NCBI GenBank assembly: GCA_942493095.1
Contig: OW818675.1
Span: 1,410,001-1,442,000, forward strand
Direction of reading: 5' to 3'
DNA length: 32,000 nt
Source: Candidatus Electronema halotolerans
GTDB lineage: Bacteria > Desulfobacterota > Desulfobulbia > Desulfobulbales > Desulfobulbaceae
Both the position numbers and the translations under genes were made by a program. Shown here piece after piece: positions 4,401-24,640 of this stretch; position 1 is the stretch's first letter, and each line of letters opens with the position of its first letter. The notes below the pieces were generated by a model. That model saw only the letters and a list, made by a program, of their open reading frames with translations, ran no database searches and was not told the DNA's origin.

Positions 4401-7400
4401 AAGCAGACACGCAGGCTTTCGTGCCGCTCAATCAGGGCGAGAAAAGACGAGCGCAGGGCCTGTTGGTCAAGGCTGCCTTCCAGCCGCAGGACAACCGGGA
4501 TATTGTAGGTCGCAGTCCTGCCCTCCAACTGGGCAAGGAACCAGAGCCGCTGCTGGGCAAAGGAAAGTCGCAGCGGCTGCTCCTCCGGCAGCCGGGGTAT
4601 GGTCAGCAGCTTCAGCTCCCGCTGATAGCCGAGCTGTTCGGCCAATGACCAGGCCGCCTCGCTGAGAAAATCTTCCTTATACGCTGTCCGCCAGCTCTCC
4701 GCCACTTGAGCATCAATTTTTTGGTGGGCATGAAATTTGATGTCGCCCAGCATCTTGCCTTCCGCATGAAGGCCGTCGGTCATCCGCTGCCTGCTGTCCT
4801 GATAAGGCTTGAGCATGTCCTGATGCAGCGGCAAATCGAGAACGTCGCAGAGCGTTGCCAAAGTCGGCTGCGGCTGACTGACTAAATCCTCAAATTTCAG
4901 GCAGCACTGTCGTTCTGCCGGGATATCTTGCAAGAAATTGAGAATGTTGTGATTGCAGTGCAGCCAGAGCATTTCCGCCAGTTTGACTGACGAGCCAGAC
5001 TCGGCCAGCTCCGCCAAAGCAGAAGAGTATGGATGGCCGGAAAGGATGCGCTCCATCCGGGCTTTTTCAAAGGAGCGGATCATGCCAAGCGGATGCCGGA
5101 GCAGGTGGATGTACAAGGCATTGTCAAAATATTCCTCAGCCTGCCGTAAAATGGCGGCATCCACGCTGTAGAACGGGGTTTTATCGACCAGCAGCCTGTT
5201 CTTGGCCGCAGTCTGGAGAACCTGATAAAAGGTCTGCACGTCCAGATCGTCTTGTTCATACTCAGTCATCATCTGCCAAGCCTGTTCCGCCGCGCAGCCG
5301 TGCAGCTCCATCAGGGCGCGGACTGTGCCTTGCAGCCAGAAGGCATCATGCTCAGTGCAGCGGGCGGCCCGTTCGCGCAGATCAGCAAAGCCGAGCAGCT
5401 CCAGTTCCGGCGGAGCGAAGAGGCGCGGATGGCCGCCGAGCATGACCCGGAGCAGGGTGGTGCCGGAACGGGGCGGGGCAAGAATGAAAACCGCAGGCGG
5501 ATTTTTTCTGGCCCTGCTGCCCGGCTTGAAGCGGGGTTTCTCGATGAGCCGCTCCAGTTCGGCCAAGTCCGCTGCTGTCACCTTGTGTTGCCGCAGCTCT
5601 GAGCTGCTTTCCGTAGCAGTCCCTTCCAACCGAGCCATCAGGTTGGGATAATGGCTTCTGATGCAGTCAACAAACTTGCTCACTGTCGGCGCGGTAAAGA
5701 GATCATAAATGTGAAAAATTTCCTGCGTCTGCGCATTCAGCTCGTTGATGAAGCGGATGCCGTTGAGCGAATTGCCGCCAATGGCGAAAAAATCATCATG
5801 AATGCCGATGCGCTCCACACCAAGAATTTTCTGCCAGATTGCCGCAATCAGGACTTCCGCCTCGGTCTGCGGGGCGACAAAGCCGGTCCGGGCCGCCGCA
5901 TCCGGTTCCGGCAAGGCTTTGCGGTCAATTTTGCCGTTCACGGTCAGAGGAAAGCTGTCCATGACTATGAAGGCGGCAGGCAGCATGTAGTCAGGCAGCC
6001 GCTCGGCCAGCCAAGCGCGCAGGCTGCGCTCTGCATCGACCAGCGGCGCGGCCAAGGTGAAATAGGCGAGCAGACGGGCATTGTCGCCTTGGCCGAACGG
6101 CATGACCACTGCCTCCTGCACCGCCTCATGCCGGGCTAAAATCGCCTCGACCTCGCCCGGCTCAATGCGGAAGCCGCGAATTTTCACCTGCTGGTCAATC
6201 CGGCCCAGATATTCAAGGCTGCCGTCCGGGAGCTGGCGGGCCAGATCGCCGGTCTTGTAGAGCCGCTGCTTTTGGCCGAACAGCTCGGTTTCAATAAATC
6301 TATCCGCAGTCAATTCAGGCCGGTTGAGATAGCCCCGGCTGACTCCGGCCCCGCCGACAAACATTTCCCCGGCAATGCCGATGGGTAGCGGCTGCTGCTG
6401 CGCATCAAGAATCCAGACCTGCAAATCGGCCAAAGGACGGCCTATGGTGCCGCCTTCCTCCTCGCAGCCGGTCAGCGGGCAATAGGTGACATGCACCGTG
6501 GTTTCAGTGATGCCGTACATGTTGACAAGCTGCGGCCTGCTGTTGCCGTGCCGGTCAAACCAAGGCCTGAGCGCGGCATAATCCAGTGCTTCGCCGCCGA
6601 AAATGACATAACGCAGGGCGAGCCGGTCCGGCTCGCTGTCAGTTTTGATGAGCTGCCGGAAGGCGGAGGGAGTCTGGTTGAGCACTGTCACCTGCTGCTC
6701 AATCAGGAGCTGATAAAAAGCTTCCGGGTCGCGGCTGATCAGATAGGGCACCACCACCAGCCTGCCGCCGTAAAGCAGCGCGCCCCAGATTTCCCAGACT
6801 GAAAAATCAAAGGCATAGGAATGGAACAGGGTCCAGACATCATCCGCCGAAAAATGATACAGCTCCTCGGTCACGGCAAAAAGGCGGCTGACATTCTGAT
6901 GCGTCACCAGGCAGCCCTTGGGCTTGCCGGTTGAGCCGGAGGTGTAGATCACGTAGGCCAGATTGTCCGGCCTGATCTCAATCAGCGAATTTTCGGACGG
7001 AAAAGCGGCGATTCTTGCCTGATCACTGTCCATGCAGAGCGTGACCGCGCTGTGTTCCGGCAGGGCATCCAGCAAACTGCTCTGGGTGAGCAGCACCTTG
7101 ACCCCGGAATCTTCCAGCAGGAAGCGCAGCCGCTCCTGGGGTGCATCCGGGTCAAGAGGGACATAAGCCCCGCCTGCCTTGAGAATGGCAAGCAGGCCGA
7201 TCACCATGTCCAAAGACCGCTCCACGCAGATGCCGACCAAGATTTCCGGCCCGACTCCCATGCTGATCAGGCAGTGGGCAAGTTGATTGGCCTTGTGGTT
7301 CAGTTCCGCATACGTAAGCCGCTGTCCTTCGCAGACTGCGGCAACCCGGTCAGCATGTTTTTCTGCCTGCGCCTCAAACAGGGCAGTAAGAGTGGCGGGC

Positions 7401-10623: not shown

Positions 10624-10680
10624 TGCTGTCAAATTTGTTGACTCGCAGGAGTGCGAATATTTTTTTACAGAGGAACAACC

Positions 10681-11706
10681 ATGAGCAAGAGAATTGTTCT
10701 GTTTAACCATAAAGGCGGAGTCAGCAAGACAACTACGACCTATAATCTGGGTTGGAAACTTGCTGAAAACAGTCGCGTCCTTCTCGTTGATGCTGACCCT
10801 CAATGTAATTTGACCAGCCTGCTGCTCGGTGATGATTTTGATAAATATTATACAGAAAAAGAAACATGTCGTCACAACTTGCGTGATGGAGTCGAGGTGG
10901 CATTCAAAGGTAAGCCCTCTCCAATAACGGCAATTGACTGTTTTGTTCCATCAAGACAGCCAAACCTGTTTTTAATTCCAGGGCATCCGAATTTGTCTGA
11001 GTTTGAGGCTGCTCTTACTTTTGCACAGACTTCAAATAATGCAATTGCAACTCTAGAAAATCTTCCAGGAGCATTCAGTGCATTTTTGAAAGAAGTAGAA
11101 AGGAAATATAAAACTGAATATACGATTATTGACTTAAACCCAAGTTTAAGCTCTATTAATCAAAATCTTTTTCTGGCATCAGATTACTTGATTATTCCAA
11201 CGAATCCTGATCCATTCTCTTTGATGGCAATAGACACACTTCGGGCAGTGATGCCTCGCTGGGCTAAATGGTTAAAAGAAAACGCATCATTATTTTCTGA
11301 AGCATCTTATCCATTAGATGAAAATCCACCAGTTCTGCTGGGTACTATTATTCAGCGTTTCAATGTTCGGAATCAGAAAGCAGCACGGCCATATCGTAAT
11401 AATATTGAAGACATAAAGAAAAAGATAGTTTTAGAGCTTCTTCCCGATTTGATGCGATTAGGCATGGCAAAAAAAGAGAAGGATTACGGAAGTATATTGA
11501 TGCAAAATGGTCTTTGTCTTGCAGAATTGTCTGACTTTCAGGGTTTGCTGCCGAAAGCTACAAATGCAGGAGTTCCTGTGTATGCGCTTACTGATGATGA
11601 AATAGGAGCAACTGGTATTGTATTAAAAGGAATGCAAGAGAATCGAAAACGATTTGGAAAACTTTTTGATCAACTTGCGGCGGAAGTCAGACGGTTGACC
11701 GCATAA
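10681..11706 (+). CDS. ParA/Soj/MinD-superfamily ATPase (341 aa, longer than classical ParA)
   Basis: A deviant Walker A motif KGGVSKTT lies at 10711-10734 within MSKRIVLFNHKGGVSKTTTTYNLGWKLA. Other motifs are VLLVDADPQCNLT and a Walker B-like YTIIDLNPS. The start is ATG 10681. Confidence 0.85.
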   Translation: MSKRIVLFNHKGGVSKTTTTYNLGWKLAENSRVLLVDADPQCNLTSLLLGDDFDKYYTEKETCRHNLRDGVEVAFKGKPSPITAIDCFVPSRQPNLFLIPGHPNLSEFEAALTFAQTSNNAIATLENLPGAFSAFLKEVERKYKTEYTIIDLNPSLSSINQNLFLASDYLIIPTNPDPFSLMAIDTLRAVMPRWAKWLKENASLFSEASYPLDENPPVLLGTIIQRFNVRNQKAARPYRNNIEDIKKKIVLELLPDLMRLGMAKKEKDYGSILMQNGLCLAELSDFQGLLPKATNAGVPVYALTDDEIGATGIVLKGMQENRKRFGKLFDQLAAEVRRLTA

Positions 11707-11709
11707 GCA

Positions 11710-12318
11710 ATGATTGTAAATTTCCGAGAAAGTTTGGCTGATGCTGAAAGATTGCGACTGCTTTATGCGCATTGCCTTGACCAGCTCCATCTTCCCGGAG
11801 ATTACAGTGATCTGCTCAGGATGAGCTTTATTTATTGCCTGAGCGCGCTGGACAAGTTGATGCACGATATTATTTTGCACGAAATGGTGGAAATATATGC
11901 TGGAAGGCGTTCGCCAACTCCTAAATATCTCTCCGAAGCACTTACGATTGAAAATCATCTTCTACTGTCAGAGGCAACTGTTCCTCCTCCTGAAATTCTC
12001 TTTGAAAAAATTATTCGGCGAAAACTTGGCTATCAAAGCTTTATGGATCCGGCAAAACTTGCCGAAGGCTTATCGCTCATTTGGGAAGAACCGCATAAAT
12101 GGCAGGCTATTGCCAACGAATTAAGCAAAGATGAGAAACAGATCAAGATCGAACTCAGAAATATCGTCAAGCGGAGAAGCGCGATAGTTCATGAGGCTGA
12201 CCGAGACCCAAGCACTATGGAGAAACTGCCTATTGATCAAGATGATGCCGAGCGAGTTCAGCTATTTATCAGCGAGATAGGAGAAATTGTTTACCGGCTT
12301 GTCTGTTTGATACCATGA
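11710..12318 (+). CDS. HEPN-superfamily protein (predicted RNase) with Rx4H motif
   Basis: The gene starts 3 nt after the ParA-like stop. The sequence looks all-helical. The motif ELRNIVKRRSAIVHEAD carries R-x4-H at 12172-12192 (RRSAIVH), in the C-terminal third where HEPN catalytic motifs sit. Confidence 0.65.
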   Translation: MIVNFRESLADAERLRLLYAHCLDQLHLPGDYSDLLRMSFIYCLSALDKLMHDIILHEMVEIYAGRRSPTPKYLSEALTIENHLLLSEATVPPPEILFEKIIRRKLGYQSFMDPAKLAEGLSLIWEEPHKWQAIANELSKDEKQIKIELRNIVKRRSAIVHEADRDPSTMEKLPIDQDDAERVQLFISEIGEIVYRLVCLIP

Positions 12319-12363: not shown

Positions 12364-14331
12364 ATGACCACCTACATCACCACCCCGATTTACTACGTCA
12401 ATGCCCTGCCGCACATCGGCCATGCCTACACCACCATCATCACGGATACGTACAGCCGTTTCCGGCGGCTTTGCGGTGATGATGTCCGTTTTCAAACCGG
12501 CACGGACGAGCACGGCGAAAAAATTGCCCAAGCTGCGGAAAAGGAAGGATGCAGTCCGCGTGAGTATGCTGACCGGATTTCCGCCGCCTTCCGCAGCACG
12601 TGGCCGCTGCTGGATATTGCCCCGGATCGCTTCATCCGCACCACCGAGCCAGAGCATATCAAGGTGGTGCAGGCTCTCCTGCAACAGGTCTATGAGCGGG
12701 ATGATATTTACTTTGCCGAATATTCAGGGCAATACTGTAAAGGCTGCGAACGCTTCCTGACCGAAAAGGAGCTGATCGACGGCAAATGCCCGGATCACCT
12801 GACTGTGCCGGACGAGGTCAGCGAGCAGAACTACTTCTTCCGCATGTCAAAATATCAGGACTGGCTGATCAGCTATATCAAAAACAATCCTGATTACATC
12901 ACCCCGGAACGCTACCGCAACGAGGTGCTGTCATTTCTCAGCGAGCCGCTGGAGGACTTGTGCATCTCCCGGCCCTGCTCGCGCCTGACGTGGGGCATTC
13001 CCCTGCCCTTTGACGAGAAATTTGTCACCTATGTCTGGTTTGATGCCTTGATCAACTATCTGACCGGCATTGGCTGGCCAGACGGCCCAAATTTCGATAA
13101 ATACTGGAATGTTGCCGAGCACGTGATTGCCAAGGACATCCTCAAGCCGCACGCCATTTACTGGCCAACCATGATTCAGGCGATGGGCCTGCCGCCCTAC
13201 AAGCGGCTGCATGTGCATGGCTATTGGAATGTGGATGAAACCAAGATGTCGAAATCGCTTGGCAATGTTATTCGGCCCAGCGATCTGGTCGAGGAATACG
13301 GCGCAGACACGGTGCGCTATTTCCTGCTGCGCGAGATGAGCTTTGGCCGCGATGCCTCCTTTTCCACCAAGGCAATCTTTGATCGGCGCAATGCTGATTT
13401 GGCCAATGATCTTGGCAATCTCTTTTCCCGCAGCCTGACCATGCTGGCCAAGTATGCGGACTCCATCGTGCCAGAACTTGACAAGGCCAGTGTGACTGAG
13501 GAGGACCGGCTGCTGGTCGATGCGCTGGAAAAGATGGTGGAGGAATACCGCCAGTGCATGAATAATTTTGAGTTTCACCGTGCTTTGCAGGCGGTTTGGG
13601 AAGTGATCGGCATGTTGAACCGCTTCATTGTCACCAATGCGCCGTGGGAGCTGGCTAAGGACGAAAGCCAAGCCGGGCGGCTGCGCACTGTGCTTTATTT
13701 CTTGGCAGACAGTCTGCGCCTGCTGGCCTTGGTTCTGCGTCCGGTCATGCCGACTGCGGCAGGCAAAATGGCGGCAGCTTTGGGTCTGGAGGAGCAGCTT
13801 GCCAAGGCAGTGCTGGATGAGGAAGGCTGCTGGGGCAAGATACAGGCTGGCACGGTGCTGAAAACAGGCGAGGCACTCTTCCCCCGCTTGGACAAGAAGG
13901 CTGCTCAACCTGCTTCTGCTGCGCCGGAAAAAATTGCCAAGGCTGAGAGAAAAAAGGCGAAAGAAGCGGTTGCCCCGGAGACGGCAGAACAGGACGGTCT
14001 GATTACTTTTGACTATTTTGGCAAGGTTGAGCTGCGGGTGGCCGAGATTGTCGCGGCGGAGAAGATCGCCAAGGCGGACAAGCTGCTCAAGCTCACGGTC
14101 AAGGCACCGGAAGAGCGCACTTTGGTGGCGGGCATTGCCAAGCATTATCAGCCGGAAGACATCATCGGCCTGAAGGTCATTATTGTCGCCAACCTCAAGC
14201 CTGCAAAGCTCATGGGCATCACCTCGCAGGGCATGGTCTTGGCGGCCAAGGAGAAGGATGCGGACGGCAATGAGCGGCTGGTGCTTTCCACTGTGACCGG
14301 GGATATTGCGGTTGGATCGCGGGTGGCGTAG
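12364..14331 (+). CDS. metG: Methionine--tRNA ligase with C-terminal tRNA-binding (EMAP/Trbp111-like) domain
   Basis: The sequence shows TTPIYYVNALPHIGHAYTT (HIGH motif), KMSKSLGN (KMSKS motif) and a CxxC knuckle (CKGCERF...CPDH). The C-terminal segment is FGKVELRVAEIVAAEKIAKADKLLKLTV...GITSQGMVLAA. Confidence 0.95.
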   Translation: MTTYITTPIYYVNALPHIGHAYTTIITDTYSRFRRLCGDDVRFQTGTDEHGEKIAQAAEKEGCSPREYADRISAAFRSTWPLLDIAPDRFIRTTEPEHIKVVQALLQQVYERDDIYFAEYSGQYCKGCERFLTEKELIDGKCPDHLTVPDEVSEQNYFFRMSKYQDWLISYIKNNPDYITPERYRNEVLSFLSEPLEDLCISRPCSRLTWGIPLPFDEKFVTYVWFDALINYLTGIGWPDGPNFDKYWNVAEHVIAKDILKPHAIYWPTMIQAMGLPPYKRLHVHGYWNVDETKMSKSLGNVIRPSDLVEEYGADTVRYFLLREMSFGRDASFSTKAIFDRRNADLANDLGNLFSRSLTMLAKYADSIVPELDKASVTEEDRLLVDALEKMVEEYRQCMNNFEFHRALQAVWEVIGMLNRFIVTNAPWELAKDESQAGRLRTVLYFLADSLRLLALVLRPVMPTAAGKMAAALGLEEQLAKAVLDEEGCWGKIQAGTVLKTGEALFPRLDKKAAQPASAAPEKIAKAERKKAKEAVAPETAEQDGLITFDYFGKVELRVAEIVAAEKIAKADKLLKLTVKAPEERTLVAGIAKHYQPEDIIGLKVIIVANLKPAKLMGITSQGMVLAAKEKDADGNERLVLSTVTGDIAVGSRVA

Positions 14332-14393
14332 CAGAAAATAGATGTTCCCATGCGGGAGTGTGGGAACAAGTACATTACTTGAGAGGAGTTGCA

Positions 14394-15437
14394 ATGATAA
14401 AAAATCTTGAGATAAAAAATTTCAGAGGCTTCTCTGAATACAAGATTGATGATGTCGGGCAGGTCAATCTGCTGGTTGGGACAAACAACTGCGGGAAGAC
14501 TTCGATTTTGGAAGCGATTCAACTGCTTAAATTACGAGGATCCTATCTTGCATATTTTTCTAGTATTGATCAAAGAGGAGAGAAAAGTGAACAACAGATA
14601 AGTGCAAGAGATTTTCGTGGCCTATTTCATGGATTTAATTTTATACCATTATCTGCATTCTTAATACAATGCAATGATAATGAATATTTAAAAACTTCAA
14701 TCAGCACAGAGAAAGATCTTTATCTAGATATTGACACACTTGATAATGATTATAGATTTCATATTATCTATAGCGTTAAAAACAAAAAAACTGAATCTGT
14801 TATTGTGTTTAACAAGGGTAGGACAGAGCAAAGGTTTGCTAAAAATGCACCAGAACATATTAAAAATATAAAATTTGTGCCAGCATCTTCCCTGACGACA
14901 CAGAAAGTTATTGCTCTATTCGAGAAGATAGCTCTTCTTCCTGATGAGGAATTTGTACTGGAAGCTATAAGAATTATTGAACCAGATATTATGCGTCTTG
15001 CATCTCTTGGAGGAAAGACTTTCTCTGAAAGAGATACTCGTGGTGGATTTTTTGTAAAAAGCAGTAAATGGGAGGAAAGAATTCCCATAGGCAGTTTCGG
15101 TGACGGCATCTGGCGTTTGCTCGGCATCGCCTTATCTCTTGTTGGAGCAAAGAACGGAACCTTGCTGATTGATGAGATAGACACCGGCTTGCATCACACG
15201 GTGATGTCCAAGATGTGGAAGCTGATTTGCGCCACAGCAAAAAAACTCAATGTGCAGGTCTTTGCCACCACGCACAGCAGCGATTGCTGGAAAACGCTGG
15301 CTGACAATGCCGTTGAAGAAAAATTTGCAGACATGCCTATCCGTATTCATCGTATTGACAAGGATAAAAAGAAACCGGAAACTTTCACCAATCAGGAAAT
15401 GCACCTTGCCTTGAACAGAGAAATTGAGGTGCGTTGA
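14394..15437 (+). CDS. ABC-type (AAA_15/AAA_21-like) ATPase, 347 aa, no fused nuclease domain
   Basis: The RBS GAGAGGAG (14381-14388) precedes ATG 14394. The N-terminus is MIKNLEIKNFRGF. Walker A GTNNCGKTS lies at 14478-14504. There is a signature-like SFGDGIWRLLGIAL, a Walker B/D-loop LLIDEIDTGLH and an H-loop FATTHSSD. Confidence 0.85.
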   Translation: MIKNLEIKNFRGFSEYKIDDVGQVNLLVGTNNCGKTSILEAIQLLKLRGSYLAYFSSIDQRGEKSEQQISARDFRGLFHGFNFIPLSAFLIQCNDNEYLKTSISTEKDLYLDIDTLDNDYRFHIIYSVKNKKTESVIVFNKGRTEQRFAKNAPEHIKNIKFVPASSLTTQKVIALFEKIALLPDEEFVLEAIRIIEPDIMRLASLGGKTFSERDTRGGFFVKSSKWEERIPIGSFGDGIWRLLGIALSLVGAKNGTLLIDEIDTGLHHTVMSKMWKLICATAKKLNVQVFATTHSSDCWKTLADNAVEEKFADMPIRIHRIDKDKKKPETFTNQEMHLALNREIEVR

Positions 15438-15438
15438 G

Positions 15439-16077
15439 ATGATTTATGAAAAGGTGCTGCTGGTTGAAGGCGAGGAAGACAAACGGGTTATTCCTGAGCT
15501 TGTCGAAGCTAATGGCGTACAATGGGGAAATAAACCGAAAGATCGTATTGTTGAAATCAAGCCGCTCCACGGAATAGAAAAACTGCTTGATAAAAATCTG
15601 ATCAATATTGAACTGAAAGCATCTGGTTTAAAAATTCTCGGCATCATTCTTGATGCAGATGAATTTCCTTCCAAACGTTGGCAAAGCATCCGCAACTGCC
15701 TGATTGAAAGATTTCCTGATCTCCCAGAACAATTGCCACAATCTGGCCTGATTCATCTTGGTGAAATCAAAGTCGGAGTTTGGATGATGCCGGACAATAA
15801 AGAGCGTGGAATGCTGGAAACCTTCCTCCAATTTCTCCTGCCGGAAGATAGCAAGGCGTTATGGCAATTTTCCGAGCAAAGCTGCCATCAGGCAAAAGAG
15901 CAAGGTGCTTGCTTCAAAGACTGCCACAGCGATAAAGCAAAAATTCACACATGGCTGGCGTGGCAAAATCCGCCCGGAAGGCAGCTTGGTTATGCGATAA
16001 AAGAACGCATTCTTTCGCCAGACTCGCCGCAGGCGGAAATTTTTATGCAGTGGTTCAAAGCACTGTTTGAAGTATGA
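15439..16077 (+). CDS. Toprim-like protein of the DUF3226/DUF4435 type (212 aa), partner of the upstream ATPase
   Basis: ATG 15439 lies 1 nt after the ATPase stop (TGAgATG), with GAGGTG at 15425-15430 as the RBS. The N-terminal strand LLVEGEEDKRVI (15457-15480) supplies the Toprim-type Glu, and GIILDADEF supplies DxD at 15652-15660. The segment VGVWMMPDNKERGMLETF resembles what I remember of DUF3226. The family assignment is from memory and not searched. Confidence 0.65.
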   Translation: MIYEKVLLVEGEEDKRVIPELVEANGVQWGNKPKDRIVEIKPLHGIEKLLDKNLINIELKASGLKILGIILDADEFPSKRWQSIRNCLIERFPDLPEQLPQSGLIHLGEIKVGVWMMPDNKERGMLETFLQFLLPEDSKALWQFSEQSCHQAKEQGACFKDCHSDKAKIHTWLAWQNPPGRQLGYAIKERILSPDSPQAEIFMQWFKALFEV

Positions 16078-16188
16078 AGAAATATTTTCTTTTTAGAAAC
16101 CATTTTTGCTAACTTCTGCAATTTATCTGCCGATGTTTTTGTCTGCGTCAGATCGGAAACAGAGGAAACAACGTCAATGTATTAAAAT

Positions 16189-16623
16189 ATGGACGCAAGA
16201 GAAGAAGCACTGCAACTTTTTCAGTCAGGATATGCTTGCTCTCAGTCAATCGTGATTGCCTTTTCAGAGCAAGCAGGTGTTGACAGGGATACAGCAAAAC
16301 GAATATCCTCTGCTTTTGGCGGCGGCATGGGGCGACTGCGGAAAACCTGCGGCGTGTTGACTGGCGCATTTATGATACTGGGTATGAAGTATGGCAACGC
16401 AGAACCGAATGATATGGATTCAAAGCTGCATACTTATCGTTTGGTTCAAGAATTTACCAGACGATTCCAAGAAAAACACGGCGAGACAGATTGCGGCAAA
16501 CTGCTCAAAAAGCATGTCAGTGAACAAGATGTCGAACAACGGCAACACCACAGGAAAATATGTGATATTTTTGTTCGTGATGGCGCAGAAATTCTATCTG
16601 AAATATTAGACAGGCAATTTTAA
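16189..16623 (+). CDS. C_GCAxxG_C_C family protein
   Basis: The sequence has FQSGYACSQSIVIAF, GGGMGRLRKTCGVLTGAFMILG (a CGxxxG variant of the family motif) and downstream Cys residues (ETDCGKLL, KICDIF). Its stop TAA (16621-16623) overlaps the next ATG by 1 nt. Confidence 0.75.
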   Translation: MDAREEALQLFQSGYACSQSIVIAFSEQAGVDRDTAKRISSAFGGGMGRLRKTCGVLTGAFMILGMKYGNAEPNDMDSKLHTYRLVQEFTRRFQEKHGETDCGKLLKKHVSEQDVEQRQHHRKICDIFVRDGAEILSEILDRQF

Positions 16624-17315
16624 TGAGAATAATCATTACTGACCTGACAAAATTTAACAAAAAAGATATTGTCTGTATTGCAGGAATCAATCCAAAGACA
16701 AATGAGTGCATCAGGCCGAGGCCATATATTGCAAAAAAAGATTGTCAAAAGAGAAATATATTGCCCGGCGCAATAATTGAAGGTAAATTTACTTCTTACC
16801 CATATACTGCTCCGCATACGGAAGATAGAAATAGAAGCCTGTTGACATTTCGTGGCCCATGCAGTTCAGAAGAATTTAAACATCTGCTTAAAAATACAAG
16901 TATTGATTCTGTTGAAGAAGGTTTTGGAATCCAATTTGCAGATGGTCAAAAATATATCCCCCATAACAATCCTCCAGATTTATCAATTATAACATTGACA
17001 TTGTATCCTGATCAATTATATATGGTTAAGGATAAATACAACAAACTTAGAGTTAATTTTACTCAACACAGCAAAGAATTTAGTTTCCTGTCTGTCACAG
17101 ATTTAAGATTTTGCAATTACGCTGAAAGAAACCTTATAGATGATAATTTATATGAGCTGAATAATTTTATTCATACCCAACAAGAAATTTATCTTAGATT
17201 AGGTCTTAGCCGTCTTTACAAAAACGAGAAGGACGGAAGAAGCGGATTCTGGTTGCAAGTCAATGGGATTTACACCTTTCCAGAATATTTCAAAAAAATC
17301 AGGTGCTATGAGTGA
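16623..17315 (+). CDS. Uncharacterised protein, possibly dual-OB (DuOB)-type (230 aa)
   Basis: The N-terminus MRIIITDLTKFNKKDIVCIAGINPKTNECIRPRP resembles the ...C(I/V)AG(I)...(W/C)IRP opening that I recall for 'dual OB domain-containing' proteins, which often neighbour DUF488 genes. The gene is very AT-rich and is overlapped at both ends by its neighbours. The family call is tentative. Confidence 0.55.
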   Translation: MRIIITDLTKFNKKDIVCIAGINPKTNECIRPRPYIAKKDCQKRNILPGAIIEGKFTSYPYTAPHTEDRNRSLLTFRGPCSSEEFKHLLKNTSIDSVEEGFGIQFADGQKYIPHNNPPDLSIITLTLYPDQLYMVKDKYNKLRVNFTQHSKEFSFLSVTDLRFCNYAERNLIDDNLYELNNFIHTQQEIYLRLGLSRLYKNEKDGRSGFWLQVNGIYTFPEYFKKIRCYE

Positions 17316-17898
17316 AAATAACGAGCTGTTCACAGTAGGGTACTCACCTTACGAAAGAGAGTCTTTTTTATCTGTTTTAAAAAAATATAAAATAACAGCA
17401 GTTGCAGATGTTCGTTCTTTACCGTTCAGTCAATTCAAACCGGAATTTAATCGAGACCAGCTATCTGAATTTCTTAAAAAGAATGAAATTGTTTATGTTT
17501 TCTTAGGAGATGTTTGCGGTGCAAAAATAGAAGACAAGTCTTGTCAGGTTGACGGAAGGATAGATTATACACTTGTAGCAAAAAAACATAAATTCAGTGA
17601 ATGCTTAAAAAGAATAATCAACGGTATGAATAAATTTAGAATAGCACTTATGTGTTCAGAAAAAGATCCAATAATGTGCCATAGAACAATATTGATTTGT
17701 CGAAATTTGATTTCCTATAATGTTTCTGTGAAACATTTATTAAGCGATGGAACTATTGAAGATCATAAAGATAGCGAACAGAGGCTGCTGAAACTTTTTA
17801 ATCTGAATCATCCAGAATTATTTCGCAGTGAGAAAGAGAGATTGAATGAGGCATATTTACGGCAAGGCAGAAAAATTGCTTTTGAAGCAAGCGCATGA
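17308..17898 (+). CDS. DUF488 family protein (196 aa)
   Basis: The sequence has LFTVGYSPYERESFLSVLKKYKITAVADVRSLPFS and the family hallmark MCSEKDPIMCHR at 17650-17685. ATG 17308 overlaps the upstream stop by 8 nt. Confidence 0.8.
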   Translation: MSENNELFTVGYSPYERESFLSVLKKYKITAVADVRSLPFSQFKPEFNRDQLSEFLKKNEIVYVFLGDVCGAKIEDKSCQVDGRIDYTLVAKKHKFSECLKRIINGMNKFRIALMCSEKDPIMCHRTILICRNLISYNVSVKHLLSDGTIEDHKDSEQRLLKLFNLNHPELFRSEKERLNEAYLRQGRKIAFEASA

Positions 17899-17951
17899 AC
17901 ATAGATTAAAATTATTTTGCCACTAAATCTATTTGAATAAAAGGACATGCA

Positions 17952-18395
17952 ATGCACAGGATAAAACTTTACACTATCGGATTTACAAAAAAAAGCGCAG
18001 AAGTATTTTTTTCGGAAATACGTGATGCTGGTGTGAAAATAGTCATCGACGTTCGGTTGAACAATATTTCGCAGCTTGCTGGTTTTGCTAAAAAAAACGA
18101 TCTTGTTTTTTTCTTGAAAGAATTGTGTGATTGTAAGTATTTGTATATTCAAGATTTTACACCAACAAAAGAAATTCTTGATGCGTACAAAAAGAAAGAG
18201 ATTGACTGGCATGAGTATGCCCGGCGTTTTCTGCTGCTCATTGAAGAACGTGAAATTGAAACAAAAGTATCGATTGAACAGCTTGATAACGCATGTCTTC
18301 TGTGCAGCGAGCCAGCATCTGAACACTGTCATCGTCGTTTGGTGAGTGAATATCTTGCGGAAAAGTTAATAAATGTAGATGTTAAGCATCTGTAA
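17952..18395 (+). CDS. DUF488 family protein, second divergent paralog (147 aa)
   Basis: The sequence has LYTIGFTKKSAEVFFSEIRDAGVKIVIDVRLNN and the hallmark CSEPASEHCHRR at 18303-18338. An AAGGA RBS lies at about 17940. Confidence 0.8.
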   Translation: MHRIKLYTIGFTKKSAEVFFSEIRDAGVKIVIDVRLNNISQLAGFAKKNDLVFFLKELCDCKYLYIQDFTPTKEILDAYKKKEIDWHEYARRFLLLIEEREIETKVSIEQLDNACLLCSEPASEHCHRRLVSEYLAEKLINVDVKHL

Positions 18396-20172: not shown

Positions 20173-21716
20173 TGACTGCGGCAGGAAAGCCTGTGATGCT
20201 GGCAATTTTGGACGGCTGGGGCCTTGCTCCGCCTTCCGCGACCAACGCCGTCTCTGTTGCTGAGACTCCGAACATGGACAAATGGGCGGCGGAATATCCT
20301 TGCACGACCTTGGCCGCCCATAACGGCGCGGTTGGCCTGCCGGAAGGACAGATGGGCAACTCCGAAGTCGGCCATCTCAATATTGGCGCGGGCCGGGTGG
20401 TGTATCAGGATTACACCCGCATCAACCGGGCTGTTGAGCTGGGGGAATTTGCTCAGAATCCTGTGCTGACAGCGGTGCTGGACAAGGTCAAGGCCGCAGG
20501 CAGCCGGGTGCATTTCTGCGGCCTGCTCTCAGATGGCGGGGTGCATTCGCATCTCAGTCACTTGGCCGCCCTGCTGGAAATGGCTGCGGCCCGCCAGATT
20601 GAGGCCAAAATTCATTGCTTCATGGATGGCCGCGACACGCCGCCGAAAAGCGGAGCAGGTTACATGCGGCAGCTCATGGAGATTATCGAGCGAGTTGGCT
20701 GCGGTCAAGTGGCGACGGTCTCTGGCCGCTACTGGGCTATGGATCGCGACACGCGCTGGGGTCGGGTGGAAAAGGCATGGCAGGCAATGGTTGACGGCCA
20801 AGGGCAGACCGCAGCTGATCCGGTGCAGGCTGTGGAAGATGCCTACAGCCAGGGCGAGACAGACGAATTTATTCAGCCGACTGTGGTGGATGCGTCAGGC
20901 CGAATTCAGGACAACGACGCAGTGGTCTTTTTCAACTTCCGCGCTGACCGGGTGCGCGAGCTGTGTCATGCTTTCGCGGATACGGACTTCACAGGGTTTT
21001 CGGTCAGCAATCGGCCTGAGCTGCTGGAGCTGGCAACCATGACCGAATATGAAGCAGATTTTTCTTTTCCCATCGCCTTTCCGCCGCAGAATCTGACCCG
21101 CATTCTTGGTGAGGAGGTGAGCCGGGCCGGGCTGCGCCAGCTACGCATTGCTGAGACTGAGAAATACGCGCATGTCACCTACTTTTTCAACGGAGGCAAT
21201 GAGGTGCCTTTTGCCGGTGAAGAGCGTATATTGGTTGAATCGCCGCGTGATGTTGCCACTTATGATCTCAAGCCTGCCATGAGCGCGGTTGAGGTGACTG
21301 ACCGCCTGCTGGCCGCGCTGGCCAAGCAGGATTATGATTTGGTGATTCTCAACTTTGCCAACGGCGACATGGTTGGTCATACTGGGATTTTGCCAGCGGC
21401 AGTGCTGGCCTGCGAAACTGTGGATCAGTGCTTGGGCCGGATTGCCGAGCGGCTGCGCGAGCTGGGCGGCATCCTGCTGATCACCGCTGATCACGGCAAT
21501 GCCGAGGTGATGCGCAATCAAGCAACCGGCCAGCCGCACACTGCTCACACCCTGAACCCGGTGCCGCTGATTTTGGTCAGTGAGCAGCACAAAGGCTGCA
21601 CTCTGAAAGGTGGCGGTGCGCTCAAGGACATTGCCCCGACCCTGCTGCACCTGCTGGGGCTGGAGCAGCCAAGGGAAATGGAAGGCGAGGATTTGCTTGC
21701 ATTCCTTAACCTTTGA
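20169..21716 (+). CDS. gpmI: 2,3-bisphosphoglycerate-independent phosphoglycerate mutase
   Basis: The sequence has PVMLAILDGWGL, GLPEGQMGNSEVGHLNIGAGR, LLSDGGVHSH and ITADHGNAE. Its ATG overlaps the rsfS stop (ATGA). Confidence 0.95.
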   Translation: MMTAAGKPVMLAILDGWGLAPPSATNAVSVAETPNMDKWAAEYPCTTLAAHNGAVGLPEGQMGNSEVGHLNIGAGRVVYQDYTRINRAVELGEFAQNPVLTAVLDKVKAAGSRVHFCGLLSDGGVHSHLSHLAALLEMAAARQIEAKIHCFMDGRDTPPKSGAGYMRQLMEIIERVGCGQVATVSGRYWAMDRDTRWGRVEKAWQAMVDGQGQTAADPVQAVEDAYSQGETDEFIQPTVVDASGRIQDNDAVVFFNFRADRVRELCHAFADTDFTGFSVSNRPELLELATMTEYEADFSFPIAFPPQNLTRILGEEVSRAGLRQLRIAETEKYAHVTYFFNGGNEVPFAGEERILVESPRDVATYDLKPAMSAVEVTDRLLAALAKQDYDLVILNFANGDMVGHTGILPAAVLACETVDQCLGRIAERLRELGGILLITADHGNAEVMRNQATGQPHTAHTLNPVPLILVSEQHKGCTLKGGGALKDIAPTLLHLLGLEQPREMEGEDLLAFLNL

Positions 21717-21760
21717 AGATAATGAGATATAAAGGTTAGGCTCCTTACTGGACTTTGAAT

Positions 21761-22369
21761 ATGCTGAGAAATTTTTTCAAGCTGAATGCCCCGTTCGATA
21801 CATTCAACAGGGAGACTTTCGACTCTCATCTGAGGACAAGTAAGCATATTTGCAATGTGTTGTATGAGCCTAACTCCTATAAAGAAGCCAAGGTTACAAG
21901 AGTAACATTTGAGAATGTTTCTTTCTCAAAAACAACTATAATCAAGGTGACATTCATCGACTGTATTTTTAAAGACTGTCTCTTTATAGCAACAAAATTT
22001 ACATCAGTTGGATTTCATGACTGTATTTTTGAAAATTGCAATTTTTACAAATCTACATTTCATAGCCTCTACGCAAGACCACATCAGTTCAGGAAGGCTA
22101 TTGCTAATGATGAGTATGCAAATATTGCCGTTCATCTGTACCAACAGCTCCGTGAGAATTATTATCAAGAATCGCAACGGGAGTTTAAGAACGAGGCGGA
22201 GTATTATTTTGGACATTGGAATCGAAAAAATGAGTATATCCAAGCAAAAAGGAAGAAAAAGAAATTCTATTCTTATATTTTTCAGCATATTATCTCGTAC
22301 CTGTATGGGTATCTCTTAGGGTATGGATATAGATTGCGCAATCTCGTAGTGACCACATTTGTATTGTTA
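21761..22369 (+). pseudogene. 5' fragment of an IS-disrupted pentapeptide-repeat / 2TM pore (Ion_trans_2-like) protein gene
   Basis: Eleven consecutive pentapeptide repeats carry a central Phe (VTFEN VSFSK TTIIK VTFID CIFKD CLFIA TKFTS VGFHD CIFEN CNFYK STFHS; 21902-22066). The reading frame is terminated by the TAG formed by the first bases of the IS (22370-22372). Confidence 0.8.
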
Positions 22370-22379
22370 TAGCGGTTTC
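22370..22379. repeat. IS630-family left terminal inverted repeat
   Basis: TAGCGGTTTC is the exact reverse complement of 23404-23413. Confidence 0.8.
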
Positions 22380-22455
22380 AGGTTGTATGGTTATCAGAAA
22401 AAGATTAAACTTGACTTGTCTGTTTTTTCCATTTTTTTACACACGGAGGTCTGCC

Positions 22456-23389
22456 ATGATTTATTCTATTGATTTCAGAAAGAAAGTCTTGTCTGTTTAT
22501 GAAAAACAGAAATCATTGAGAAGAACTGCAGATTTGCTTGACGTTTCCTATAAATTTGTTCAAAGTCTTGTAAAAAGATGGAAGACTGAGGGGACGCTTG
22601 AGCCGAAGCCTCATAAAGGCGGAAATCCTCCGAAAATCAAGGAAGTTCATATGCCTTTTCTGACCAGCATGATTGATGACGAGAACGATCTTACGCTTGA
22701 AGAGATGTGTGATCGCTTATACGAGAAATTCAATTTAAAAATAGCACCTTCCACGCTGTGCGAAACTCTCGCCAGACTGAAAATCAGCCGGAAAAAAAAC
22801 TTTCCGCGATCCGGCGGCGTATAAAGAGGAAAATATAGCAAAGACAGTTAATTACCTTGCAGGCCTGCTCGAGGCTGACAAAAAGAATTTCATCTTTATT
22901 GATGAGACAGGATGCTGTTTGAACATGTCGAGAAAATTTGCAAGATCAAGAAAAGGAACAAGAGCTTTTTCAAAAAGACCTTCAGGTAAAGGGAAAAGAA
23001 TAAGCATGATAGGAGCTGTAAAGTTTGGAAAAATATTGAAGTGCATGAAATTTAAAGGCACCATGACAGGAGATGTCTTTTATTTCTATATAAAAAATTA
23101 TCTTTTGAAATATCTTGACAGCAGCAAGACAGTCGTTCTTGACAATGCCAGTCCTCATAAAAACAAAGAAGCTCTCGCTTTGATCAGAAGTACAGGAGCG
23201 AAGATCATTTTCCTCCCTCCTTATCGTCCTGAACTGAACCCTATTGAATACTGCTGGTCAGTAATGAAAAACACTATAAGAAAATTGAAGCCGAGAACAG
23301 AGCGTGAGCTGATGGAAGCTTATGATATATCTCTGAAAACGGTTAAGTCAAAATCAATCAAATCGTTTTTCCGTCATTGCTGGGTTTGA
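22456..23389 (+). CDS. IS630-family transposase, in two frames (frameshift or slippage needed at an A8 run)
   Basis: OrfA runs 22456-22824 (MIYSIDFRKKVLSVYEKQKSLRRTADLLDVS... HTH, ...LKISRKKN). The second frame is open from 22781 to 23389 (...KKTFRDPAAYKEEN...NFIFIDETGCCLNMSR...VVLDNASPHKN...YRPELNPIEYCW), giving a DDE triad of D, D and E. The frames meet at GAAAAAAAAC (22791-22800). The downstream frame is +1 relative to orfA. Confidence 0.8.
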
Positions 23390-23403
23390 TATCTGTTCAA
23401 TAC

Positions 23404-23413
23404 GAAACCGCTA
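23404..23413. repeat. IS630-family right terminal inverted repeat
   Basis: GAAACCGCTA is the exact reverse complement of 22370-22379. Confidence 0.8.
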
Positions 23414-23415
23414 TA

Positions 23416-23649
23416 TTGTCAACCATTTTGGCGAATTACATATTCGCTCAGTATCTTTTTGCAGAACCAGTGGAAACATCATTGGTGAAGACGATATACT
23501 TCACACTTACGACTATGGCAACGCTTGGAGCATCTGGCTATAGTCCAGACACGGAAATAGGTTATCTATTCGTAGTGGCAAATGTCATATTCGGAATGAG
23601 CATTTTATCTGCAACTATCGGTGCAATATTTAAGAAGGTTATCCGATGA
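23416..23649 (+). pseudogene. 3' fragment of the IS-disrupted pentapeptide-repeat / 2TM pore protein gene (pore helix, filter-like loop, inner helix)
   Basis: The fragment reads LSTILANYIFAQYLF (TM), SLVKTIYFTLTTMATLGASGYSP (pore-helix and filter-like segment at 23509-23541, compare the canonical T-x-G-Y-G-D) and IGYLFVVANVIFGMSILSATIGAIF (TM). It joins in frame to 22369 once the IS and one TA are removed. Confidence 0.8.
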
Positions 23650-24482
23650 TGCTGGTGATAGAATTTGGAAGCGGCAGGCGTGGAGATTGCGATCTGACAT
23701 CAGATAGAGATATTCTCCTTATTGGAACGGATTGGCAGAAAATTTCGTATGAATCGGCAAAGTGGTGCATAAATGGTTTTTCTGTTAGTACATTTTTGTT
23801 CGACAAGGCCAGCTATTTGGCAAGCAAGGGCAATCTTTTCTTCAAGCATATCTTCGATGAAGGTGTCCTTGTATTCGGATCAGAGGCTCGCTATAGAGAA
23901 CTTAAAGATAGATGGCAGGCGGCTGCCGACTATTGGGATGAAGTACGAGATAATTTAGACCTCTTGGAAGTTATTCATTTTATTCCTCAGACATCTGCTG
24001 GAATAGCCGTAGCTATTGATATTTTAATTTCTAGTGTGCGGAACATTCTAATTCGGAGACTTGCATGCGACGGAAAATATGTATTCGCATGGGGGAAGGT
24101 TTTTGTAGAGGCAAACAAAAGACAGATGATCAAGAAAGAGGATATACATCTTTTTATGACATCGAGATGTCTAAAGAATAAATATCGTCAAGGTTTTATC
24201 CAAAATCTACCGCTCTCATACTTGGAAGCTCTTCTTGAAGCATCCAATAGGGCTTGCGGAGTGATGCTGAGACCAAACTTCGCTTATCGCGCTGCCCTTC
24301 GATCTTTGCCAGAAAAATACTTGGATGGGACATACAAACAGCTTCGTGCTCTGGAACTCATGTGTGCAGAATATTTGTTTGATAAATCCCTTGACCCGTT
24401 AATGAGTATTGTCCGTACTCCTGCATACTTCTGCGTCAATGGGCCTGCCAAGTCCATCCGCCGATGTCAAAAAGCGGTATGA
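23646..24482 (+). CDS. Pol-beta-superfamily nucleotidyltransferase (MNT-like N-terminus + about 200 aa helical C-terminal region)
   Basis: The motif FGSGRRGDCDLTSDRDILLIG matches G-S-x(n)-D-x-D (23667-23711). Its ATG overlaps the stop of the pore-protein gene (ATGA at 23646-23649). Confidence 0.75.
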   Translation: MMLVIEFGSGRRGDCDLTSDRDILLIGTDWQKISYESAKWCINGFSVSTFLFDKASYLASKGNLFFKHIFDEGVLVFGSEARYRELKDRWQAAADYWDEVRDNLDLLEVIHFIPQTSAGIAVAIDILISSVRNILIRRLACDGKYVFAWGKVFVEANKRQMIKKEDIHLFMTSRCLKNKYRQGFIQNLPLSYLEALLEASNRACGVMLRPNFAYRAALRSLPEKYLDGTYKQLRALELMCAEYLFDKSLDPLMSIVRTPAYFCVNGPAKSIRRCQKAV

Positions 24483-24640
24483 TTGATGGCTCCAGCATTA
24501 TCGCAGGTATTAAACAACAAATCGATTTTCATACTGAATCGGTCGCCGAGCTGAAAGCGGCCAAAGCGTGAATCAATCGAGTTCCCGCGCCTTGGCCTAA
24601 CTTGCGCGGATATGAGGAAATTTTCAATCGAGAGAAAACT

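Follow-up and report, generated by a model that had tools for sequence, protein, structure and literature searches.

Introduction

The combination of an ATPase with a Toprim domain, as found in OLD, Gabija, PARIS and AbiL, is among the most successful designs of bacterial immunity. To our knowledge, the trigger and the target are both known for few branches of this architecture. Here we analyze two adjacent genes, encoding an ABC ATPase and a DUF3226 protein, in a 32,000 nucleotide (nt) stretch of the Candidatus Electronema halotolerans genome (contig OW818675.1, positions 1,410,001 to 1,442,000; hereafter the window). An earlier note, made from the sequence of the window, had proposed the pair as a candidate immune module with the architecture of PARIS (AriA/AriB) and AbiL.

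AbiL from Lactococcus is a validated abortive-infection system (PMC13064643). In PARIS, AriA sequesters AriB until a phage trigger releases AriB, which then cleaves tRNA (PMC11464382, PMC10802264); AriA and AriB are about 55 kDa and about 35 kDa in size, respectively (PMC11464382). An unnamed two-gene ATPase and toprim system in Nostoc is also cited in the literature (PMC10802264) and may belong to the ATPase-DUF3226 family. Further candidates were provided by Payne et al., 2024 (bioRxiv 10.1101/2024.01.29.577857), who curated 145 computational "phage defence candidates" (PDC) that were added to PADLOC. Each PDC system is a cassette that was found inside a BREX, DISARM or type I restriction-modification (RM) locus, and one of them, PDC-M38, corresponds to the cassettes CAS_00138 and CAS_00155 in the supplement of the same paper.

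The gene pair matches the PDC-M38 candidate family

Both proteins of the window pair are covered by the PADLOC profiles of PDC-M38. The ATPase matched PDC-M38A (PDLC04611) at an E-value of 4e-78 (261.6 bits; protein 1-347, profile 1-383 of 383), and the DUF3226 protein matched PDC-M38B (PDLC04624) at 2.3e-68 (228 bits; protein 2-211, profile 11-219 of 220). In the window, component A is directly followed by component B on one strand, in line with PDC-M38. The PDC-M38B profile was also matched by all of the 35 diverse DUF3226 members, down to 34% identity, over which residue conservation is counted below. Judged by these profiles, the pair is a member of PDC-M38, a catalogued candidate branch of ATPase-plus-Toprim-like defence, and not a new discovery. 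We saw no difference from PDC-M38 in the sequences themselves; the PDC-M38 cassettes are embedded in RM, BREX or DISARM loci, whereas the window pair lies outside any such locus. No paper mentioning DUF3226, PF11536 or PDC-M38 was found in the literature library searched. Since the system is listed in PADLOC and this search came back empty, the ATPase-DUF3226 family is catalogued yet undescribed in papers. The novelty suggested in the earlier note is reduced by the full-length PDC-M38 matches of both genes and survives insofar as PDC-M38 is itself only a computational candidate.

Among the described systems, AbiL likewise consists of two genes, encoding an ABC ATPase and a small Toprim/OLD-like nuclease, and the window ATPase fits AbiLi (PDLC02336) over its full length (6.1e-57; protein 1-347, profile 1-340 of 340). 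The partners differ, being DUF3226 in the window and RloB-like in AbiLii; no match to the AbiLii or RloB profiles was obtained at E-values up to 1 with the window protein and the 35 members. By profile comparison, the window pair is AbiL-like on the ATPase side only.

The likeness to PARIS lies in the LLVEGxxD motif with which the putative effector begins and which aligns with a self-built AriB/DUF4435 family in hhalign (86.6% probability, E 4.5e-6, 27 columns). The differences are more numerous. AriA carries coiled-coil insertions, whereas the 347 amino acid (aa) ATPase of the window has an insert predicted to be beta-rich and devoid of coiled coil; the AriA profiles cover just the generic AAA_15/AAA_21 parts of this protein (2e-27; protein 1-162, profile 1-124). 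The partner was correctly assigned from the letters to DUF3226 and not to DUF4435 (Pfam DUF3226 4e-71, DUF4435 unmatched). The DUF4435 and AriB profiles gave no match in the window protein, and two of the 35 members touch DUF4435 (best 0.24) or AriB (0.0069). The second catalytic motif is DAD in DUF3226 compared with D-R-E (D90) in the AriB family. Both window proteins are shorter than AriA and AriB, as the earlier note had supposed; the AriB chains in the PDB comprise 308-316 aa, compared with 212 aa for the window protein. Moreover, PARIS often resides on phages or satellites, whereas the ATPase-DUF3226 family is nearly absent from viral collections. Identity with PARIS was rejected, as the pair carries neither DUF4435 nor an AriA-type insert. 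The general PARIS/AbiL-type architecture proposed earlier is nevertheless a sensible reading, in view of the full-length AbiLi match of the ATPase and the near-universal synteny described below.

OLD nucleases share the ATPase clade, with TsOLD of Thermus ranking first in a PDB profile search with the window ATPase (9e-9), and the conserved acids and lysine of the DUF3226 protein are spaced like those of BpOLD. In OLD and GajA, however, the ATPase and Toprim domains are fused in one chain, whereas the window pair is two proteins. A single-chain OLD-family nuclease (class 1/2 or GajA) was rejected for this locus, where a stop codon separates two open reading frames (ORFs). HEC-01 also combines an ABC ATPase with a separate Toprim-like protein in two genes, which are embedded in Hma systems, but it is another family by profile: HEC-01A matched the ATPase partially (3.5e-15), and HEC-01B was weakly matched by a few DUF3226 members.

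A compact two-gene cassette is conserved across distant bacteria

The gene structure described in the earlier note was borne out in all respects: genes of 347 and 212 codons that start 62 nt after metG, spaced by a single nucleotide at the TGAgATG junction (15435-15441), and AT-rich compared with their neighbours. The guanine-plus-cytosine (GC) content of the pair is 40.9%, compared with 56.1% for metG, and the low-GC block that starts at the pair extends to about 19500. Att-like direct repeats and a tRNA integration site were both looked for around this block, with no convincing result. Scanned for promoters and terminators, the region 14000-16400 gave nothing above shuffled expectation, and neither a sigma-70-like promoter nor an intrinsic terminator was found in the metG-ATPase spacer. 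Thus, read-through from metG into the pair is possible.

The DUF3226 family comprises 1184 clusters at 90% identity and 2278 clusters at 50% identity (E up to 1e-3), and a scan of a one-genome-per-species collection gave at least 595 confirmed matches. As thousands of homologs exist for both proteins, the pair is far more than chance. Synteny was analyzed in the best 80 of the at least 595 DUF3226 loci, a sample of cable bacteria, many cyanobacteria and Planctomycetes. An ATPase homolog is located immediately upstream on the same strand in all 78 testable loci, and the other two loci end at a contig edge; the co-occurrence of the two families envisaged from the window is therefore seen across genomes. 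The same gene order was found in metagenomic members of 34% identity and in plasmid members of 26-35% identity, and the split into two ORFs is kept in all loci examined. The GC content of the pair is below that of its flanks in 78/78 loci, with a mean deficit of 5.8 points.

Several members are found on plasmids. The pair is the main cargo of the mobilizable ColE/MOBQ plasmid pRHBSTW-00398_4 of Citrobacter freundii (6449 bp; L089), where its two genes overlap by 4 nt. It adjoins BrnT/BrnA on an Acinetobacter plasmid and comes after P2-like tail genes on a Plesiomonas megaplasmid. As a separate observation on the Citrobacter plasmid, the pair (L089:4096-5942) is preceded by a gene for 193 aa that bears the annotation "tRNA modification GTPase" (the three genes together at 3440-5942).

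In NCBI, the protein identical to window positions 15439-16074 (P0001, 100%) and its Tumidithrix ortholog (P0058) are both named "DUF4435 domain-containing protein". The public annotation of the family is inconsistent, because Pfam recognizes DUF3226 in this protein and leaves DUF4435 unmatched.

The ATPase combines an intact ABC head with a hypervariable insert

Pfam assigned AAA_15 (3e-27) and AAA_21 (7e-18) to the ATPase and found no nuclease domain in it, as anticipated, and the NCBIfam scan returned no specific model for either protein of the pair. All four ATPase motifs that had been read from the window, namely Walker A, SFGDG, LLIDEID and TTHS, are invariant or nearly so in 37 homologs. 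The invariant residues are G29, N31, N32, G34 and K35 in Walker A, G236 and G238 in the signature-like motif (D237 nearly so), D260, I262, D263, L266 and H267 in the Walker B region (E261 nearly so), and T292, T293 and H294 in the H-loop. The AlphaFold2 (AF2) model of the protein shows an ABC head with a pLDDT (predicted local distance difference test) score of 85. When this model was compared with the PDB by Foldseek, the best match was PtuA of Septu and retrons (1.5e-13), and the further matches were Rad50, SMC heads and TsOLD (E 1e-13 to 1e-11 over all four). The ATPase thus carries all of the ABC motifs intact on an ABC head fold. In gene structure, domain identity, ATPase motifs and synteny, the locus is confirmed as a real two-gene cassette.

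In contrast to the conserved core, the region of aa 61-165 is hypervariable. Its mean pairwise identity is 0.29, compared with 0.73 for aa 226-310, and among cable bacteria alone the values are 0.33 and 0.87, respectively. In the AF2 model, this insert sits between the two halves of the ABC head and contains strands at 88-93, 97-104, 121-128, 131-140, 143-150 and 159-162. Such sequence variation is as expected of an arms-race surface, and the insert may serve as the sensor surface.

The DUF3226 protein resembles a minimal Toprim enzyme

The Pfam DUF3226 domain (PF11536) spans almost the whole second protein (239.4 bits compared with a gathering cut-off of 27; profile 2-208 of 208). The pLDDT of the AF2 model is 79 for the whole protein and about 90 within aa 1-120, and the topology of the model is b1-a1-b2-a2-b3-a3-b4. 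In the Toprim layout, strand 1 ends at a Glu, and a DxD motif comes after strand 3 (PMC6755086). In the model, E10 directly follows strand 5-9 (b1) and D72-A-D74 directly follows strand 66-71 (b3), which agrees with this layout. Both motifs had been recognized in the earlier note; the DAD motif lies at 15652-15660 as described, and LLVEGEEDK starts at 15457 as described but ends at 15483, one codon beyond the 15480 given before.

These residues are conserved across the family. E10 and D72 are kept in all 35 members; an acidic residue (D or E) occupies position 14 in 32 members, and at position 74 there is D in 31 members and N in the remaining four. Further downstream, in a block after strand 4, no variation is seen at W115, M117, P118, G124 and E127, 33/35 members carry D119 and as many carry N120, and K166 in the C-terminal part is kept in 34/35. 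The candidate counterparts in BpOLD are E400/E404, D455/D457, E508 and K562, whose roles are described (PMC6755086). The spacing is comparable, with 62 aa between E10 and D72 versus 55 between E400 and D455, and 55 aa between D72 and E127 versus 53 between D455 and E508. The E-x3-D/E motif formed by E10 and D14 resembles OLD E400/E404 as well as E25/D29 of the AriB family. By position and conservation, E127/D119 and K166 may be the counterparts of the OLD E508 site and K562, respectively. A metal-dependent active site is indicated, because the acids at the ends of strands 1 and 3 are invariant and D119, E127 and K166 are conserved with them.

Weak profile matches point in the same direction. 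The LLVEGEEDK stretch is the segment aligned by OLD-like_TOPRIM of Pfam, by Old of PADLOC, by the AriB chains in the PDB and by the AriB-family profile. OLD-like_TOPRIM was matched by 19 of the 35 members at E-values up to 1 (best 1.3e-5). Beyond PDC-M38B, the PADLOC families matched by these members were Old in eight (best 1.9e-4), HEC-01B, AriB, mad4 and GajA, and the sole match outside the Toprim families was Csm3 (0.057). A PDB search with the DUF3226 family profile placed AriB first at a non-significant E-value of 0.66, and in a relaxed hhalign comparison GIILD72 fell on FLCD90 of the AriB family with low confidence. XopAI, the sole PDB match of the single DUF3226 protein sequence, was discarded as spurious. 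The Toprim assignment is moderately supported by the motif-level profile matches and the predicted topology, and the DUF3226 protein is likely a divergent and minimal Toprim-derived nuclease.

A candidate sensor-effector module and its alternatives

We favor, with a probability of about 60%, the interpretation that the pair is a two-gene operon and a compact PARIS/AbiL-like module of the PDC-M38 family, with the ATPase as a sensor and a nuclease as the effector. The DUF3226 gene would be translationally coupled to the ATPase gene. As in PARIS, AbiL and OLD, the ATPase would act as a sensor or regulator holding the nuclease in check, and its insert at aa 61-165 may provide the surface for contact with a phage or plasmid cue. 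On infection, the DUF3226 protein would be released or activated as the effector and would cut nucleic acid, which may be tRNA, other RNA or DNA, at a putative two-metal site formed by E10/D14, D72/D74 and D119/E127 with the assistance of K166. The outcome would be growth arrest or abortive infection. In favour of this interpretation are the full-length PDC-M38 and AbiLi matches, the strict synteny, the signs of mobility (low GC content, variable neighbours, carriage on plasmids and two nearby putative conflict modules in the window), the Toprim-like features of the DUF3226 protein, and the invariant ABC motifs and hypervariable insert of the ATPase. By analogy with these described systems, we infer the nuclease activity, the division into sensor and effector, the physical interaction between the two proteins and the anti-phage role.

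Several observations weigh against this interpretation. In its source paper, PDC-M38 is a computational candidate only, and defence was not seen for the related ATPase-plus-Toprim candidate HEC-01 when the same authors assayed it (Payne et al., 2024, bioRxiv 10.1101/2024.01.29.577857). In viral collections the DUF3226 family is scarcely represented, with no match in INPHARED and a single locus in IMG/VR; the idea that the pair is phage-borne like PARIS was rejected on these grounds. The genes around the pair in the 78 loci are mostly housekeeping genes that differ between lineages, and in the sister Electronema genomes the pair occupies a fixed place directly upstream of rsfS. As for the DUF3226 protein, the C-terminal 90 residues of the AF2 model are of low confidence (pLDDT <50 at 162-169), and the OLD-like_TOPRIM score of the window protein is 17.4 bits, below the cut-off of 23.2, with just the first 23 of 67 profile positions aligned. 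The hhalign match to the AriB family is confined to the first 25-27 residues. Foldseek gave nothing significant for the model, either against the PDB (best E 0.07, lumazine synthase) or against BFVD (best E 0.026), and Toprim proteins, namely retron Eco2, DnaG and primase-helicases, were among the non-significant matches alone. We therefore do not claim a structural match to Toprim. Of the Toprim fold proposed in the earlier note, the layout and conservation of E10 and DxD hold, while the structural comparison is not significant, the OLD-like_TOPRIM score of the window protein is below threshold and the AriB-family alignment is limited to 27 columns.

These negative comparisons would suit a DUF3226 protein that is not a nuclease but a non-catalytic adaptor or another enzyme on a generic flavodoxin/Rossmann-like fold, with the ATPase or an unlinked partner as the effector. 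The top Foldseek matches, none of them significant, were lumazine synthase, RecA/KaiC-like and succinyl-CoA synthetase folds, and both the sub-threshold OLD-like_TOPRIM score and the short hhalign alignment fit this possibility. However, invariant acids at the ends of strands 1 and 3 together with D119, E127 and K166 form a pattern expected of a metal site, and the weak cross-family matches are, except for Csm3 (0.057), all to Toprim nucleases and not to other alpha/beta enzymes. We regard a non-nuclease role as unlikely. A housekeeping function in DNA or RNA metabolism, such as OLD/RecF-like repair or RNA processing in the manner of RNase M5, inherited along with the neighbouring genes, appears more improbable still. 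It would account for the large core genes that often lie upstream on the same strand (metG, valS, alaS, gltX-like, metH, topA, clpB and mutS2), for the conserved place beside rsfS in Electronema genomes, and for the lack of promoter and terminator signals between metG and the ATPase gene. On the other hand, the distribution of the pair is patchy, covering cable bacteria, cyanobacteria, Planctomycetes and small gammaproteobacterial plasmids, its genomic context differs in nearly every lineage, and its GC deficit is consistent. No NCBIfam housekeeping model matches, and the closest named relatives of the ATPase are all defence proteins.

The same scattering among housekeeping genes rather than defence islands, together with a GC content below the flanks everywhere, could also be read as the trace of a selfish, toxin-antitoxin-like cassette, with the DUF3226 protein as the toxin and the ATPase as its antidote. 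Such a cassette would persist on plasmids and chromosomal islets by post-segregational killing and have no dedicated anti-phage role. Addiction is supported by the mobilizable plasmid of 6.4 kb on which the pair is the main cargo and by the adjacent BrnT/BrnA and ParE/ParD modules, and PARIS itself acts in toxin-antitoxin fashion (PMC13064643). One role does not preclude the other, however, as PARIS is both; moreover, the hypervariable ATPase insert suggests that a changing external ligand is recognized, and the family was picked up inside RM/BREX/DISARM loci. A purely selfish cassette is, in our judgment, an improbable explanation. We also consider a bolder form of the sensor-effector interpretation, which is speculative and rather doubtful as a whole. 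DUF3226 would represent a distinct minimal Toprim lineage, which with the AbiLi-like ATPase would make up the smallest known PARIS-type module, common in filamentous cyanobacteria and cable bacteria and acting on tRNA or other RNA. Its repeated placement immediately downstream of aminoacyl-tRNA synthetase genes and further strongly expressed core genes (metG, valS, alaS, gltX-like, metH, topA) would couple its expression or its triggering to the state of translation and not to classical defence islands.

The DUF3226 branch is large and compact (347 and 212 aa), and it is concentrated in groups that are ecologically important and poorly studied for their phages, namely cable bacteria, cyanobacteria and Planctomycetes. 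If the pair is a working nuclease-based defence, it would assign a function to a Pfam domain of unknown function and offer a minimal model of sensor-effector coupling. The value of the window lies mainly in annotation, with a candidate defence pair of the PDC-M38 type and two further candidate conflict modules around metG. This annotation is solid and would not surprise a specialist, and the pair is a compact experimental target.

Genomic context of the pair

The coordinates of the features in the window are listed in Table 1.

Table 1. Features of the pair and its surroundings (positions in the 32,000 nt window).
Feature	Position	Strand	Basis or remark
Non-ribosomal peptide synthetase, 2495 aa	1406-8893	-	Two C-A-T modules; embedded sulfotransferase domain, aa 1133-1403
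ParA-like AAA_31 ATPase and RiboL-PSP HEPN protein	10651-12318		4 nt apart; upstream of metG
metG, 655 aa	12364-14331	+	ORF directly upstream of the ATPase gene
metG-ATPase spacer, 62 nt	14332-14393	+	Read from sequence
Shine-Dalgarno-like GAGAGGAG	14381-14388	+	5 nt before the ATPase ATG, within the spacer
ATPase ORF, 347 aa; ABC ATPase of the OLD/RecF/PtuA-like clade, PADLOC PDC-M38A and AbiLi-like	14394-15437	+	ATG 14394 to TGA 15437; Pfam, PADLOC, AF2/Foldseek
Walker A / P-loop GTNNCGKTS	14478-14504	+	Read from sequence
Hypervariable ATPase insert, aa 61-165	14574-14888	+	Candidate sensor surface; predicted beta-rich, not coiled-coil
ABC signature-like SFGDG	15093-15107	+	Read from sequence
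Walker B LLIDEID, followed by D-loop/TGLH	15162-15182	+	Read from sequence
H-loop TTHS	15267-15278	+	Read from sequence
DUF3226-protein ORF, 212 aa; PDC-M38B by PADLOC, predicted to be a Toprim-like metal-dependent nuclease (effector)	15439-16077	+	ATG 15439 to TGA 16077; Pfam, PADLOC, AF2
LLVEGEEDK, end of strand 1 with E10 and D14	15457-15483	+	Read from sequence
D72-A-D74 (DxD)	15652-15660	+	After predicted strand 3
WMMPDN...E127 block after strand 4; candidate second metal site	15781-15819	+	Family-specific conservation
K166 in the C-terminal helical part; putative equivalent of OLD K562	15934-15936	+	Conservation
DuOB-domain protein	16623-17315		Within the 3.6-kb low-GC block
DUF488 proteins, two	17263-17898 and 17952-18395		PADLOC PDC-M45B (1e-72) and PDC-M45C (3e-63)
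IS630-family insertion sequence	22368-23415		Imperfect terminal inverted repeats of 29 nt at 22368-22396 and 23387-23415

The surroundings of the family were surveyed by Pfam on the nearest upstream gene in 71 loci and the nearest downstream gene in 74 loci. The upstream neighbours vary strongly, with 97 Pfam families in 71 loci. Uma2 is the sole recurrent conflict-type neighbour (14 times), and RM, PLD and PIN genes occur just singly. Main residence in classical defence islands was rejected because the neighbours in this census were mostly housekeeping genes.

In three sister Electronema genomes (L003, L005 and L007), topA lies upstream of the pair. Unlike the sister genomes, the window contains a 3.6-kb low-GC block inserted between the pair and rsfS, with a C_GCAxxG gene, DuOB, two DUF488 genes and an NMT1_3 gene. 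The region 16623-18395 has the lowest GC content of the window (32-34%), and the DuOB/DUF488 block is missing from the corresponding place in the sister genomes. On the other side of metG, the ParA-like ATPase (AAA_31, 7e-30) and the HEPN protein (RiboL-PSP, 1e-6, just over the gathering score) form an islet of 40% GC and are probably a separate two-gene conflict module. In Nostoc sp. WHI, homologs of this ParA-HEPN pair (L048:2048-3761) immediately precede the ATPase-DUF3226 pair on its upstream side. In the window, metG is flanked by small low-GC cassettes of the conflict type, and the family overall is not a classical defence-island resident.

An aminoacyl-tRNA synthetase gene is located directly upstream of the pair on the same strand in several unrelated lineages. 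The window has MetRS at this place, Ca. Electrothrix YB6 has a ValRS-like enzyme, three Nostocales have AlaRS, and a metagenomic member of 34% identity has a GluRS/GlnRS-type enzyme (window metG, L004, L067, L072, L076 and L088). Other genes at this position are metH (6 loci), topA (3 loci), clpB and mutS2. As a post hoc observation, the synthetase neighbours are more than expected by chance.

A third low-GC islet at 21500-24500 contains the IS630 element and a pentapeptide-repeat protein (21755-22372). The transposase of this element is split into a helix-turn-helix ORF (22387-22824) and a DDE_3 ORF (22919-23389), and the element is therefore probably frameshifted or decayed. At the other end of the window, the non-ribosomal peptide synthetase is encoded on the opposite strand.

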